Source: a virus
Taxonomy: Duplodnaviria > Heunggongvirae > Uroviricota > Caudoviricetes
Strand: one strand, 5' to 3'
Length of the DNA: 5,232 bases
Virus record (IMG/VR): IMGVR_UViG_2690316188_000006
Made by a program: the position numbers and the translations under genes. The notes beneath the pieces were generated by a model. It ran no database searches. It was given only the letters and a program-made list of their open reading frames with translations, and was not told the origin of the DNA. Below are positions 1-5,232 of this stretch, piece after piece; within the stretch, counting starts at the first letter, position 1; each line of letters begins with the position of its first letter.

Positions 1-135
1 TGCCTGGTGCCTCCAGGTGACGTTAACCAGTTAACAATTAACGCCGGATACAGAGAATCCACCCATAACACTGTTTTTGGTTTTAACTGTTCCGCGTGCG
101 CTCAGCCGCATTCACCACATCACAAAATTCACTTT

Positions 136-193
136 AAAAAGGGCGGCAGAGCAGTCACGGAGTAAAACTGATACCGCCAAACGTCACCAGAAA
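136..193 (-). ncRNA. dicF: DicF antisense sRNA of the dicB-type operon, including its 3' intrinsic terminator
   Basis: Reverse complement of 136-193 reads TTTCTGGTGACGTTTGGCGGTATCAGTTTTACTCCGTGACTGCTCTGCCGCCCTTTTT, which matches DicF as I recall it and ends in GC-rich sequence plus a T5 run. It sits downstream of ydfC-like genes on the same strand, as in Qin. Ends are approximate. Confidence 0.7.
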
Positions 194-1416: not shown

Positions 1417-1692
1417 ATGTCGACTGAAAATGATGAAATCATTAACTCCCTGATACGCCAGATTAATAATTTTGATAAAGCATTGCAACATGCTGCGGCG
1501 CGTAGTGATATAACTCTTTTAGCAATTTCATTTCTTGCATCTGTTATGGATAAAAATGAAGTCGTACGACAGAGTCTTGTTGATTATATCGACTCGCTTC
1601 AACCCGGCACTTTCAATCATGAGAGCTTCAATCATGAGAAAGAGCATGTTAAGTCTGTAATTAATTCTCTTATTTTGAATCAAAAGAATTAA
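1417..1692 (+). CDS. Hypothetical protein orf92 (92 aa), unknown function
   Basis: ATG at 1417 with AGGAGG 5 nt upstream, stop TAA at 1690-1692. AT-rich relative to neighbours. Predicted helical with no obvious transmembrane segment. The ORF-track entry 1204-1692 is the same frame extended upstream through R2. Confidence 0.55.
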   Translation: MSTENDEIINSLIRQINNFDKALQHAAARSDITLLAISFLASVMDKNEVVRQSLVDYIDSLQPGTFNHESFNHEKEHVKSVINSLILNQKN

Positions 1693-1990
1693 TGCTTTTT
1701 GTTGCAAAGTAATTTTCAAGGGGTTCTATTCGAATCCCTTTCTTTTTCATTAACAAGCCAAACCCCTTATCAATGATGTCCATTAGATCCAGGAAGTATT
1801 TTTCATGTAAATCCTGGTTATCAGAGAGCTGCTTCTCTTCGTACAGCCCGATAAAGGCTCGGCGTACGTTACCGGATATATTGTCGATGGTTTCTTTTTC
1901 TACGGTACTCAGGTCAAGAGTCGCCAGTTGAGAGCGAACCACATTCGATGCCATTTCCTGGAATGGTACTGGTAAATCTTTAAATTCCAT
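1670..1990 (-). CDS. Hypothetical protein orf106 (106 aa; 110 aa if started at ATG 2002), unknown function
   Basis: ATG at 1990 with GAGG 7 nt upstream. The alternative ATG at 2002 overlaps the ydfA-copy-2 stop (TGATG). Stop at 1672-1670. Its 3' end overlaps orf92 by 23 bp (1670-1692), convergently. Confidence 0.6.
   Translation of the reverse strand: MEFKDLPVPFQEMASNVVRSQLATLDLSTVEKETIDNISGNVRRAFIGLYEEKQLSDNQDLHEKYFLDLMDIIDKGFGLLMKKKGIRIEPLENYFATKSINSFDSK
1720..1747 (+). terminator. Putative intrinsic terminator for orf92
   Basis: GGGGTTC / GAATCCC 7-bp stem (one G-U pair) with 5-nt loop, followed by TTTCTTTTT, starting 28 nt after the orf92 stop. Lies inside the orf106 coding region on the other strand. 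Confidence 0.35.
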
Positions 1991-2001
1991 CGTCAACCTC
2001 A

Positions 2002-2154
2002 TCAGTCAGTGTTTCTGGTTAACCAGCGACGCGCGCCAGCTTCAGTTTTAAACGTTTTGCTTCTGGTATATGTCATCGCGGTAAACGTGCCGTCCTGGTT
2101 GGGAAACACGCCGCATACCAGAGATTCGTTGTTGCCAAGCTCGATAGTATCCAT
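2002..2154 (-). CDS. YdfA-like protein, second diverged copy (50 aa from the internal ATG; in-frame ORF extends to 2235, 77 aa)
   Basis: Paralog of the 913-1068 gene. The 5' 134 bp (2157-2290) is identical to 1071-1204, and divergence increases toward the 3' end. Same RBS arrangement as copy 1. Confidence 0.7.
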   Translation of the reverse strand: MDTIELGNNESLVCGVFPNQDGTFTAMTYTRSKTFKTEAGARRWLTRNTD

Positions 2155-2332
2155 GCTGACCTCATTTCCCCTTAACGCCGGGGTAGCGGAACAAAAACCT
2201 GCTGCATAGTTATTAAAGTTGAACCCTGCCGTCATGTTCTTACGCCTCGGGCTGGCTACTTAACCCCTGACCACTGCCTGGTAACTCGAAGTATTGCCCT
2301 GCATTCTGTGGGGTGGGGTGGGTGGCAGGTAT

Positions 2333-2361
2333 ATAATGTACTTTGCGTTCATTGTTGTAAA
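2333..2361 (-). promoter_or_regulatory. Putative leftward early promoter (pL/dicBp analog) with operator-like GTAC inverted repeats
   Basis: On the minus strand: TTTACA (2361-2356), 17-nt spacer, CATTAT (2338-2333). Overlapped by GTACTTT..AAAGTAC inverted repeat (2338-2366) and ATGTAC motifs also found in the cI-cro intergenic region. Position is right for driving the leftward operon. Confidence 0.4.
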
Positions 2362-2451
2362 GTACTTTTAGTACATTCTGTGTGTAAAAAAATGAGATGG
2401 GATAAAGTGAAGCACAAACCCGGAGGAAGGCGCTACCGGATTTATGCTGGT

Positions 2452-2871
2452 TTAAGAGGCTTTTTGTTTTTTCTTTCGTGCTAACTCTTCGTAAATTGCA
2501 TTGTACTTCTGTTTTTTCTCTTCAAGAGTTTTTAAAAGTTCATCTGTCTCACTGTCAGGGAGCTCGTCCAGAAGGTCAATGATGATTTTTTGTCTTGGAT
2601 TTAACTCCTGATAGAAACGTACCTGTCCACTTTCTTCTGTATCCTCTCCCAAAAGATAGGTTGGTGTTGTTCCTATTAGTGTTGCTAATTCCCTTAATTT
2701 CTCCCGGCGAGGAATTGTTTCGCCATTAAACCATTTGCTAACCGCTTTTGGTGTTAATTTCATTCGACGGGCAATTTCTGCCTGCCTTCCATGTTGTTCA
2801 TAACCAGCATTTTCACAGGCTAGCGCAAGCCTACTGGCGAACTCTTTACGCGCTTTATCTTCATGAACCAT
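2452..2871 (-). CDS. Prophage repressor, XRE-family HTH (CI/DicA-like), 139 aa
   Basis: N-terminal HTH_XRE-like segment (QAEIARRMKLTPKAVSKWFNGETIP) and an acidic/helical C-terminal tail reminiscent of DicA. Divergent from the cro-like gene. No SD before ATG 2871 (leaderless-type start). Confidence 0.85.
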   Translation of the reverse strand: MVHEDKARKEFASRLALACENAGYEQHGRQAEIARRMKLTPKAVSKWFNGETIPRREKLRELATLIGTTPTYLLGEDTEESGQVRFYQELNPRQKIIIDLLDELPDSETDELLKTLEEKKQKYNAIYEELARKKKQKAS

Positions 2872-2950
2872 AAGTTCAATGATATTCGCTCTTGAATGTA
2901 CTGTCAGTTCTGTTATAGCATGTACTCAAAGTTCACATTGTGAGGGTGAT
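2872..2950. promoter_or_regulatory. Divergent overlapping promoter/operator region (pRM-like leftward, pR-like rightward)
   Basis: Minus strand: CTGACA (2907-2902), 17 nt, TATCAT (2884-2879), 7 nt, ATG, predicting a leaderless repressor mRNA. Plus strand: TTGAAT (2892-2897), 16 nt, extended -10 TGtTATAGC (2911-2919). ATGTACT repeats at 2896-2902 and 2920-2926; near-palindromes ACTGTCAGT (2900-2908) and CACATTGTG. Confidence 0.5.
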
Positions 2951-3205
2951 ATGAACCAGAAAACACTTGAAGATGTAATCAAAACTGTTCGCGTTGCTGT
3001 TGTGGCCGACGTTTGTGGTGTCAGCCAAAGAGCAATCTATAAATGGATGGATAACGGAAAATTGCCTCGCACAGAATATACCGGCGAAACAAATTACGCT
3101 GAAAAAATCGCTCTTGCATCAAACGGATTATTTTCTGCCGATGCAATTTTAACTATTGGCAGGAATAAAACTACTACGAAAAAGCTGATGGGAGTTGATT
3201 CATGA
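2951..3205 (+). CDS. Cro-like / YdaS-family HTH regulator (84 aa)
   Basis: ATG at 2951 with GAGGGTGAT upstream. HTH-like segment VADVCGVSQRAIYKWMDNGKLP. First rightward gene opposite the repressor. The longer ORF-track start (2879) lacks an RBS and would overlap the operators. Confidence 0.8.
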   Translation: MNQKTLEDVIKTVRVAVVADVCGVSQRAIYKWMDNGKLPRTEYTGETNYAEKIALASNGLFSADAILTIGRNKTTTKKLMGVDS

Positions 3206-3627
3206 AAATCAAGCATGAACACATCCGCATGGCGATGAATGCCTGGGCGCATCCGGACGGCGAAAAAGTACCGGCTGCGAAAATTACCAAAGCATATTTC
3301 GAGCTGGGAATGACGTTCCCGGAACTGTATGACGACAGCCATCCGGAAGCCCTGGCTCGCAATACTCAGAAAATTTTCCGCTGGGTGGAGAAAGACACCC
3401 CTGATGCGGTTAAAAAAATTCAGGCGTTGTTACCAGCTATCGAAAAAGCAATGCCACCTCTGCTGGTGGCCCGAATGCGCAGTCATAGCTCAGCCTATTT
3501 TCGGGAACTAGTGGAGACGCGGGAACGACTGGTGAGAGACGCTGATGATTTTGTCGCAGTGGCGATCGCTGGTTTCAACCAGATGAATCGTGGTGGCCCT
3601 GCAGGAAATATTGTGGCTGTGCATTGA
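3202..3627 (+). CDS. ydaT: YdaT-like protein (141 aa), proposed CII-analog regulator / formerly called a toxin
   Basis: Start MKIKHEHI... resembles Rac YdaT as I recall it. ATG 3202 overlaps the cro-like stop (ATGA, 4-bp overlap). Position is second gene of the rightward operon. Confidence 0.8.
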   Translation: MKIKHEHIRMAMNAWAHPDGEKVPAAKITKAYFELGMTFPELYDDSHPEALARNTQKIFRWVEKDTPDAVKKIQALLPAIEKAMPPLLVARMRSHSSAYFRELVETRERLVRDADDFVAVAIAGFNQMNRGGPAGNIVAVH

Positions 3628-3698: not shown

Positions 3699-4769
3699 AT
3701 GGCTAACGCCTGGCTCAGATTATGGCATGACATGCCAAATGACCCTAAGTGGCGAACAATTGCCAGGGTGTCAGGGCAGCCAATTGCAACAGTGATGGCA
3801 GTGTATATCCACCTCCTGGTGAGCGCGTCACGAAATGTCACGCGAGGTCACATTGATGTCACGACAGAAGATTTGGCAAGTGCGCTCGACGTGACAGAAG
3901 AGGTAATTGATTCAATTTTGCAGACGATGCAGGGGCGGGTACTTGATGGTGATTTAATCACTGGATGGGAAAAACGCCAGGTGCTTAAAGAGGACAACGG
4001 CAATATTTCGCAAACCGCAAAATCTCCTGCAGAGCGCAAGAGGGCGCAGCGAGAGAGGGAAAGAAAGCGGGAACAAAATGGCGATTGTCACGGCGCGTCA
4101 CGAAATGTCACGCACATGTCACGACGAGTCACGACAGATAAAGATACAGATAAAGATACAGATCAAGAAGATCAAAACACTATGGTCCATGGCGTAAAAA
4201 ACGCCACGAACCAGGCAGGGGATGTTCAGACCGTCAATCCTGGTCAGCCAGCAGGCACGACACCGGAAGCCGATTCAGCGTATGCGCTGAAAGCCGATTC
4301 GGGCGCTGTGCAGCAGGTGATGACCGCAAGGCCGGAGCAATCACACCAACTGCAGCAGCCCGAAGCCGATTCCGCCATTCAGCGGGAAGCCGATCGGGTA
4401 GTCCCGGAAAACACCGGTCAGTCTGTGGGACGAGTGGATTATCCGGATGTGTTCGAACAGGTCTGGCGGGAGTACCCGTTGCGTGCCGGAGCAAACCCGA
4501 AGAAATCCGCTTTCAGTGCCTGGAAGGCCAGATTACGCGAGGGGGTGCCACCAGAGGCCATGCTGGATGGCGTGAGGCGTTACGCAAGATACTTGGCGGC
4601 TACCGGGAAAGCGGGAACGGAATTTGTTCAGCGAGCGACGACGTTTTTTGGACCGGACCGGAATTTTGAGAACCCCTGGTTTCTCCCGGTAAGCGGCACG
4701 AACAACCAGCGTTGTGTGAATCATATTACTGAACCGGATAACGAAATTCCGCCGGGCTTCAGGGGGTAA
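3699..4769 (+). CDS. Phage replisome organizer / replication initiator (lambda O functional analog), 356 aa
   Basis: N-terminus AWLRLWHDMPNDPKWRTIARV... resembles the phage replisome-organizer N-terminal domain. Basic linker ERKRAQRERERKRE. Internal iteron arrays. AGAGG 5 nt before ATG 3699 (the track's GTG at 3693 is an alternative). Stop TAA at 4767-4769. Confidence 0.85.
   Translation: MANAWLRLWHDMPNDPKWRTIARVSGQPIATVMAVYIHLLVSASRNVTRGHIDVTTEDLASALDVTEEVIDSILQTMQGRVLDGDLITGWEKRQVLKEDNGNISQTAKSPAERKRAQRERERKREQNGDCHGASRNVTHMSRRVTTDKDTDKDTDQEDQNTMVHGVKNATNQAGDVQTVNPGQPAGTTPEADSAYALKADSGAVQQVMTARPEQSHQLQQPEADSAIQREADRVVPENTGQSVGRVDYPDVFEQVWREYPLRAGANPKKSAFSAWKARLREGVPPEAMLDGVRRYARYLAATGKAGTEFVQRATTFFGPDRNFENPWFLPVSGTNNQRCVNHITEPDNEIPPGFRG
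3825..3867. repeat. Iteron-like array 1: four GTCAC(G/A) repeats at 10-11 bp spacing inside the replication gene
   Basis: GTCACG at 3827, 3837, 3858 and GTCACA at 3847. 3823-3843 is a 21-bp exact copy of 4093-4113. Confidence 0.5.
4085..4174. other. Putative origin of replication: iteron array 2 (five GTCACG repeats, 10-11 bp period) followed by an AT-rich tract with a tandem 12-mer and two GATC sites
   Basis: GTCACG at 4087, 4097, 4107, 4118, 4128. Then GATAAAGATACA twice (4137-4160) and GATCAAGAAGATC. Lies in the linker region of the initiator gene, as lambda ori lies within O. Confidence 0.5.
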
Positions 4770-4809: not shown

Positions 4810-5232
4810 GTGGCAAAAGTTTTTACACAAGAAGAGCGGGAAAAAATTAAAGGGCTGATCGTGGAATTCGTACGCCTTAACGGACGAGGCACGATTCGGC
4901 AGTTATCGGATGAAATTGGTGTCAGTCATGCGTCTGTCGGTCGTTTATGCATGGAGCTGGCCGCCAGTGGTGATGTTTACAATTCCGGTTACGGAGTATT
5001 CCCGTCTGAGCAGGCGCGCAAGGACTGGCAAAACGCCCGCAAAAAACTCTCAAGGGCAAAGCTGAAGAAACCATCTGTGGTTGATCCGGACCTTATCTGG
5101 CTATTACCAGACGGCGAAATACGCCGCTACGACAGGCGCCTAAACATAATCTGTCGCGAGTGCCGGAAGAGCGAAGCTATGCAGCGTGTACTGGCATTTT
5201 ATCAAGGAAATGTTAGGTATTTTAGACGTTAC
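4810..5232 (+). CDS. Hypothetical protein, 5' partial in window (at least 141 aa, runs off the right edge); possible winged-helix DNA-binding protein
   Basis: GTG at 4810 with AGGAGG 4 nt upstream. Open frame to the window end. Segment TIRQLSDEIGVSHASVGRLCMEL looks HTH-like. Not in the ORF track because it has no stop in the window. Confidence 0.55.
   Translation, partial: MAKVFTQEEREKIKGLIVEFVRLNGRGTIRQLSDEIGVSHASVGRLCMELAASGDVYNSGYGVFPSEQARKDWQNARKKLSRAKLKKPSVVDPDLIWLLPDGEIRRYDRRLNIICRECRKSEAMQRVLAFYQGNVRYFRRY

Follow-up and report, generated by a model that had tools for sequence, protein, structure and literature searches.

Gene pair and immunity region

The stretch of DNA analysed here, the window, comprises 5,232 nucleotides and is the immunity and early region of a lambdoid Escherichia coli prophage of a very common type. 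Two rightward genes are of interest. The first (2951..3205, plus strand) starts at ATG 2951, stops at TGA 3203-3205 and codes for an HTH_17/AlpA-like helix-turn-helix (HTH) protein of 84 residues. The reading frame, profile searches and RefSeq define this gene, and its position marks it as a Cro analog. The second (3202..3627, plus strand), with ATG 3202 as its start and TGA 3625-3627 as its stop, codes for YdaT, a protein of 141 residues. It was identified from family profiles, identity to PDB entries and alignment with Rac YdaT, and we regard it as a functional analog of lambda CII. Start and stop codons overlap in the sequence ATGA (3202..3205, plus strand). Both genes are preceded by a Shine-Dalgarno sequence of their own; GAGG (2942-2945) for the 84-residue gene and GGGAG (3190..3194, plus strand) for ydaT. 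The latter lies within the 3' end of the Cro gene, with the ydaT ATG 7 nt downstream. An alternative start for the first gene, ATG 2879, would yield 108 residues. It lacks a Shine-Dalgarno sequence, and translation from it would cross the promoter/operator region.

The same two genes, with the same 4-bp overlap, are annotated by RefSeq at 4865-5119 and 5116-5541 of a locus (L001) that is 99.9% identical to the window across the Cro-ydaT stretch. Gene calls in ten further assemblies have the 84- and 141-residue starts and the 4-bp overlap. Hence, the pair of reading frames and the ATGA overlap described in the earlier note are borne out, both by the coordinates of the frames and by the RefSeq calls of the near-identical locus.

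Divergent from the pair is a repressor gene (2452..2871, minus strand) in the CI/DicA position. The product, 139 residues long, matches HTH_3 (E 1.8e-9) and, weakly and below the cut-off, the DicA subfamily. A profile search found no S24 peptidase domain in this repressor. Induction through RecA-stimulated self-cleavage is therefore unlikely. Between the repressor and Cro genes (2862..2935) are three operator-like 17-mers close to CATGTACTnnnAGTTCA, at 2862-2878, 2895-2911 and 2919-2935. These form a candidate tripartite OR. In the window as a whole there are 7 such 17-mers, compared with 0.41 expected. The promoter scan identified a strong pRM-like promoter, CTGACA-17-TATCAT (2879..2907, minus strand), in the same region. 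The repressor ATG (2871) lies 8 nt beyond the end of the -10 element of this promoter, TATCAT (2884..2879), with no Shine-Dalgarno sequence between them, which suggests that the repressor mRNA is leaderless. Leaderless mRNAs have been reported for lambda cI and paaR2 (PMC8630535). A relaxed scan, together with inference, points to a pR-like promoter, TTGAAT-16-(TGt)TATAGC (2892..2919, plus strand), as a candidate for the Cro-ydaT operon.

A second cluster of operator-like sites lies 75-120 bp beyond the 3' end of the repressor gene (2333..2377, minus strand). Here, a leftward promoter-like sequence, TTTACA-17-CATTAT (2361..2333), is accompanied by two to three operator-like 17-mers (2335-2351, 2359-2377). 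This is a candidate analog of pL/OL for the ydfA...dicF operon. The two operator-like clusters thus recall, by analogy, the layout of lambda OR and OL.

The leftward operon contains DUF1391/YdfA-like, ydfB and ydfC genes and the DicF antisense RNA (141-192, minus strand), a full-length Rfam match scoring 76.7 bits against a gathering score of 48. Adjoining DicF is a partial STnc100 match (1-139, minus strand) that scores 28.5, below its gathering score of 47. Two pairs of direct repeats, 925-1204 with 2011-2290 and 314-514 with 1202-1402, are 94% and 98% identical, respectively. The repeats yield two DUF1391/YdfA-like paralogs (913-1149, 2002-2235); in the near-identical L001 there is a single DUF1391 gene. 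They flank approximately 1.09 kb, which holds a gene for a 110-residue PHROG 6937 protein (1670-2002, minus strand) and a plus-strand reading frame (1204/1414-1692) with no family match. From its sequence, the repeat-bracketed segment looks like the product of recombination or insertion between related prophage early-left regions.

Rightward of ydaT, in the lambda O position, is a gene for a replication initiator/replisome organiser of 356 residues (3699..4769, plus strand; PHROG 3729, E 3e-256). The mechanical list of reading frames starts this gene at GTG 3693 (358 residues). RefSeq and other gene calls start it at ATG 3699, after GAGGTGA. The 71 bp that separate ydaT from the replication gene contain an inverted repeat (3637-3649/3675-3687) with 13-nt arms that are 85% complementary and 25 nt apart.

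YdaT and its upstream partner

With 39.1 bits (E 1.1e-9), the 141-residue protein clears the cut-off of 21 for Pfam family PF06254 (YdaT_toxin). It also matches PHROG 163, "CII-like transcriptional activator", with E 3.5e-45. No NCBIfam model matched YdaT. Alignment with Rac YdaT spans the full length of both proteins (141 and 140 residues) with 33% identity (E 6e-15). The earlier note had called the protein YdaT-like, a description that was to fall if proper alignment gave no similarity to YdaT; the family match, the full-length Rac alignment and the PDB identities given below all uphold it. In a profile search with the same protein there was no match to Pfam Phage_CII at E<=0.1. The likeness to lambda CII is one of function and not of family membership.

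Two PDB entries allow the structure to be considered. Entry 3c4r is 97% identical across all 141 residues and, for this reason, the fold of the protein is in effect solved. Briefly, 3c4r consists of a POU-like HTH domain and a long helix that forms a four-helix-bundle tetramer (PMC9986795). Entry 8bt1, the YdaT of CP-933P, is 85% identical over the full length. The 21 substitutions relative to 8bt1 fall mostly in the C-terminal tetramerisation helix (16 of 21), with five in the DNA-binding domain (residues 1-96). Unchanged are the HTH loop (35-49), the recognition-helix residues (50-61) and Arg60, the base-contacting residue singled out by the CP-933P authors (PMC9986795). Judged by identity to 3c4r and 8bt1, the protein is thus predicted to have the POU-like HTH domain, the long α2-α3 loop, Arg60 and the C-terminal tetramerising helix.

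Profile searches matched the 84-residue protein to PHROG 35, "transcriptional repressor" (E 6.8e-14); HTH_17 also appeared, with a score under its cut-off. The YdaS family, PF15943, gave no match at E<=0.1. A BLASTP comparison with Rac YdaS reached E 0.075 over 18 residues only, and a sequence search of the PDB found nothing at E<=1. The single-sequence AlphaFold2 model (mean pLDDT 56, pTM 0.41) was too poor for a fold search. By these comparisons, the protein is not a member of the YdaS family. Hence, the YdaS/YdaT-type arrangement proposed in the earlier note holds for the layout and for the YdaT half, but not for the first gene. The description of that gene as Cro-like stands, given that it encodes a small HTH protein in the Cro position. 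It is also the first gene of the rightward operon and is divergent from the repressor across shared predicted operators. We conclude that only position and context make the 84-residue protein a Cro analog. Near-identical genes are named "helix-turn-helix transcriptional regulator" or "AlpA family transcriptional regulator" in database records.

The YdaT box and exchange of modules

At the start of ydaT is a YdaT box (TTGATTcATGAaaAATCAA, 3195..3212) that matches exactly the footprinted high-affinity operator of CP-933P YdaT. The box, TTGATTCATGAAAATCAA (3195-3212), is an exact 18-bp inverted repeat and the sole zero-mismatch occurrence of TTGATTN6AATCAA in the window. Allowing up to 2 mismatches, the window contains 2 matches and 0.45 are expected. 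Weaker matches elsewhere in the window are at chance level (5 against 3.8 expected), and the repressor-Cro intergenic region has no further YdaT box at up to 3 mismatches. In CP-933P, the YdaT footprint covers TTGATTN6AATCAA, the high-affinity site OM, where ydaS and ydaT meet (PMC9986795). For Rac YdaT the bound sequence is ATGATTCATGAAAATCAA, whose spacer contains the ydaT ATG; this protein also binds in the repressor-Cro intergenic region and covers the ydaS promoter (PMC11879457).

The spacer of the box, CATGAA, contains both the ATG of ydaT and the TGA of the Cro gene. Hence, the start-stop overlap sits inside the predicted operator. Overlaps of 4 bp in the form ATGA are common in bacterial operons. 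By itself the overlap is unremarkable; the non-random part is its place between the half-sites of an exact 18-bp inverted repeat, in a spacer of 6 bp. With start codon, stop codon and operator in the same 18 bp, the site is a tidy example of a regulatory element constraining coding sequence. The earlier note took the overlap to imply translational coupling. This does not follow strongly, since ydaT has its own Shine-Dalgarno sequence and the overlap geometry varies in relatives. Coupling of Cro and ydaT translation is possible because the stop of one overlaps the start of the other. In related loci, the upstream stop is found 22 nt before the ydaT ATG (Rac), at ATGA, or 17 nt inside ydaT. The overlap geometry is therefore not the conserved feature. 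What relatives conserve is the operator together with the ATG.

Alignment of loci is consistent with this. Among 19 fetched loci, 17 have the 16-nt core TGATTCATGAAAATCA at the start of ydaT, with a single copy in each, and this core is invariant where the flanking Cro modules are unalignable. When seven loci with different upstream genes were aligned, nothing was conserved to the left of the box. In the same alignment GATTCATGAAAATCAAGCATGA(A/G)CACAT is almost invariant, even in Rac.

Comparison of the loci also reveals that the genes on either side of the box are exchanged. In the window, as in many assemblies, the identical 141-residue YdaT comes after the 84-residue protein. In three loci (L005, L007 and L018), it is preceded by a 75-residue P22_Cro-type protein and a 214-residue S24 repressor. 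In two others (L006 and L008), a 93-residue YdaS-family protein precedes a YdaT allele with three substitutions. A further partner, of 80 residues, precedes a YdaT that is 83% identical. On forced global alignment, the 84-, 75- and 93-residue upstream proteins share 17-30% identity. Exchange is also evident in the opposite direction. In L004, the same repressor (99% identical) and the same 84-residue protein (82 of 84 residues) precede a Rac-type YdaT that is 33% identical. This locus (NZ_CP026085.1, labelled DH5alpha; 2081-3253) is a Rac-type prophage with recE, kilR, ydaU and ydaV, in which the repressor and 84-residue Cro of the window replace racR and ydaS, with an ATGA overlap to the Rac-type ydaT. 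The immunity genes of MG1655 Rac differ from those of L004.

In every locus examined, the type of Cro tracked the type of repressor. The O-like replication protein is 99% identical where YdaT is identical or near-identical, 47% identical alongside the 83%-identical YdaT, and 18% identical (YdaU) alongside Rac-type YdaT. YdaT thus co-varies with the replication gene, and Cro with the repressor. A search of E. coli genomes, with matches in 3,277 of them, locates the junction; in most of the records listed homology starts at 3185-3197, and in the others it stops at 3225. Of the 3,286 matching records, 410 cover at least 80% of the query, and the presence of this Cro together with this ydaT is certain for those alone. 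Partners are swapped in both directions, which a cognate toxin-antitoxin pair would not tolerate. On comparative grounds, the Cro analog and ydaT are therefore parts of different exchangeable modules, joined at the box.

The box and the first eight ydaT codons (a patch of approximately 30 bp, ~3196-3225) are the only stretch common to loci with unalignable Cro genes and 33%-identical YdaTs. Because homology starts or stops within this patch in most listed records, and the patch alone is shared, we tentatively suggest that it may double as a recombination joint between the repressor-Cro and ydaT-replication modules, although we consider this slightly less probable than the converse. This is the sole mildly new idea to emerge, since the rest is already known; the family, structure, binding site and CII-like role have all been published.

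Regulatory role of the pair

Related prophages place these observations in context. For CP-933P, a cryptic prophage of E. coli O157:H7 (PDB 8bt1), the comparison draws on the PDB sequence and on the published site. The 12 specified operator bases are identical, the box is at the border with the upstream gene, and ydaT follows the Cro analog and precedes replication genes. However, CP-933P has PaaR2-PaaA2-ParE2 and a YdaS-like Cro that is 26% identical to Rac YdaS (PMC8630535), whereas here there is a 139-residue repressor, no toxin-antitoxin cassette and an HTH_17-like Cro. A locus from EDL933 (L003) was considered as the CP-933P locus and rejected. It is a different prophage, with a truncated LexA-family repressor, no paaR2-paaA2-parE2, and a YdaT 87% identical to 8bt1. 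Entry 3c4r, a structural-genomics entry, derives from a cryptic prophage of E. coli O6:H1. In Rac of E. coli K-12, the first eight YdaT residues (MKIKHEHI) are identical to those encoded here and the layout is the same; repressor, Cro analog, YdaT, replication genes. The Rac box differs by one base (ATGATT for TTGATT) and has the ATG in its spacer. Conversely, Rac YdaS is unrelated to the 84-residue protein, a 22-nt gap replaces the ATGA overlap, and RacR and the replication genes ydaU and ydaV have no relationship to their counterparts in the window.

The organisation is also that of lambda cI-cro-cII-O. Lambda, too, has divergent repressor and Cro genes over an operator of three sites, and a further cluster of operators at its leftward promoter. 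In either case the binding site of the activator overlaps the 5' end of the activator gene itself, and the activator feeds a leftward promoter for the repressor, which is a prediction for the window. There is no sequence relationship between the two systems, and the repressor in the window lacks the S24 autocleavage domain. The lambda CII site is a direct TTGC-N6-TTGC repeat. The box described here is an inverted repeat.

We consider that the pair very probably encodes Cro-type and CII-type (YdaT) regulators of lysis and lysogeny, and not a toxin-antitoxin system. The 139-residue repressor and the 84-residue Cro analog would be transcribed divergently from the operator cluster at 2862-2935, with the rightward operon running on into ydaT. 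By analogy with its relatives, YdaT would bind as a tetramer to TTGATT-N6-AATCAA (3195-3212), over its own start codon, and would then activate a leftward promoter. The leftward transcript would cross the Cro gene in antisense and reach the repressor gene. Lysogeny would thereby be more readily established or maintained, much as lambda CII acts at pRE. Gene order, family, the exact box, the unchanged DNA-contact residues, the operator-like clusters and module swapping were computed for this locus. DNA binding, tetramer formation, leftward-promoter activation and lack of toxicity are known from experiments on relatives. By analogy with those, we infer that the same regulatory steps operate in this prophage.

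The experiments on relatives are informative. In CP-933P, expression of ydaT turns on the otherwise silent leftward promoter pRE933P, leaving pR, pRM and pL unaffected (PMC8630535). In Rac, YdaT bound at the box activates a reverse promoter, PracR4, inside ydaS, and so raises RacR (PMC11879457). The activated promoter adjoins the box in CP-933P (PMC8630535), but lies approximately 190 bp away, inside ydaS, in Rac (PMC11879457). Because the two prophages place it differently, the geometry of the leftward promoter in the window is uncertain. A strict scan of 2951-3330 found no leftward promoter. A relaxed scan gave two weak leftward candidates, TTCAGC-17-TATATT (3103..3075) and TCGCCA-17-TGcTTGATT (3235..3207). 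The -10 element of the latter (3212..3207) would coincide with the right half of the box, and that of the former would lie at 3080..3075. We also considered an antisense RNA resembling lambda oop. The candidate, a terminator-like hairpin in ydaT (3470..3453, minus strand), is not conserved in L003, L009 or Rac, and terminators in the window are at chance level, so the idea was discarded.

The earlier note had set the toxin-antitoxin and Cro/CII readings side by side and held that sequence could not tell which applies. The Cro/CII reading stands; the choice is decided by the box, the context, the module swapping and papers on relatives. According to the toxin-antitoxin reading, YdaT is a toxin of a type II system, the upstream HTH protein is both antitoxin and autorepressor, and translational coupling sets their ratio. 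The names YdaT_toxin in Pfam and "toxin YdaT family protein" in RefSeq suggest as much, as do the small two-gene layout with its 4-bp overlap and the toxicity reported for Rac YdaT. However, the toxin name stems from a 2007 prediction that later experiments have not supported, and YdaT has been solved structurally as a DNA-binding transcription factor. No toxicity was detected for CP-933P YdaT, 85% identical to the protein studied here, and the authors concluded that YdaS and YdaT are analogs of Cro and CII and not a toxin-antitoxin system (PMC8630535). Expression of Rac YdaT is toxic; the protein also regulates the host gene rcsA, and the toxicity has been attributed to rcsA deregulation (PMC11879457). 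Because of these properties of Rac YdaT, the homolog described here may, by analogy, also have effects on the host. Furthermore, a type II toxin-antitoxin system is expected to be a conserved cognate pair. Here the partners are swapped. The identical YdaT (with the 93-residue partner, the allele with three substitutions) occurs with at least three mutually unalignable proteins, of 84, 75 and 93 residues, and the 83%-identical YdaT with a fourth, of 80 residues. The same 84-residue protein also precedes the 33%-identical Rac-type YdaT. This argument against a toxin-antitoxin unit uses sequence alone and is independent of the experiments. Taken together, the toxin-antitoxin reading is very improbable.

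YdaT could instead be mainly an autorepressor or roadblock, with the box over its own start limiting rightward transcription into ydaT and the replication genes. The position of the box, which covers the ydaT ATG and adjoins the Shine-Dalgarno sequence, is in keeping with this. The CP-933P study described YdaT as a repressor, with a footprint of approximately 95 nt that spreads to both sides of the box (PMC9986795), and the coverage of the ydaS promoter by Rac YdaT points the same way (PMC11879457). Nevertheless, activation of a leftward promoter by YdaT was demonstrated in both CP-933P (PMC8630535) and Rac (PMC11879457), and we regard autorepression as unlikely to be the main function. An autoregulatory or roadblock function is compatible with the Cro/CII reading and may be an added role. 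Lastly, the prophage could be cryptic and decayed, and the genes inert leftovers that no longer regulate anything. Defective members are numerous among E. coli prophages of this type, and IS1 or IS5 insertions occur in some related loci. Yet every reading frame in the region is intact, as are the box and both operator clusters. In the assembly collection, 16,241 blocks list exactly this 141-residue protein, and deposited phage genome records contain a 100% identical protein. Decay to inert remnants is thus as poorly favoured as a toxin-antitoxin function.

The Cro/CII reading has practical value for annotation, because one protein is currently described in two ways. The allele is among the commonest in E. 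coli. Phage record vB_EcoS-689R5 and others call the identical YdaT "activator protein cII", and the RefSeq name for the same protein is "toxin YdaT family protein".
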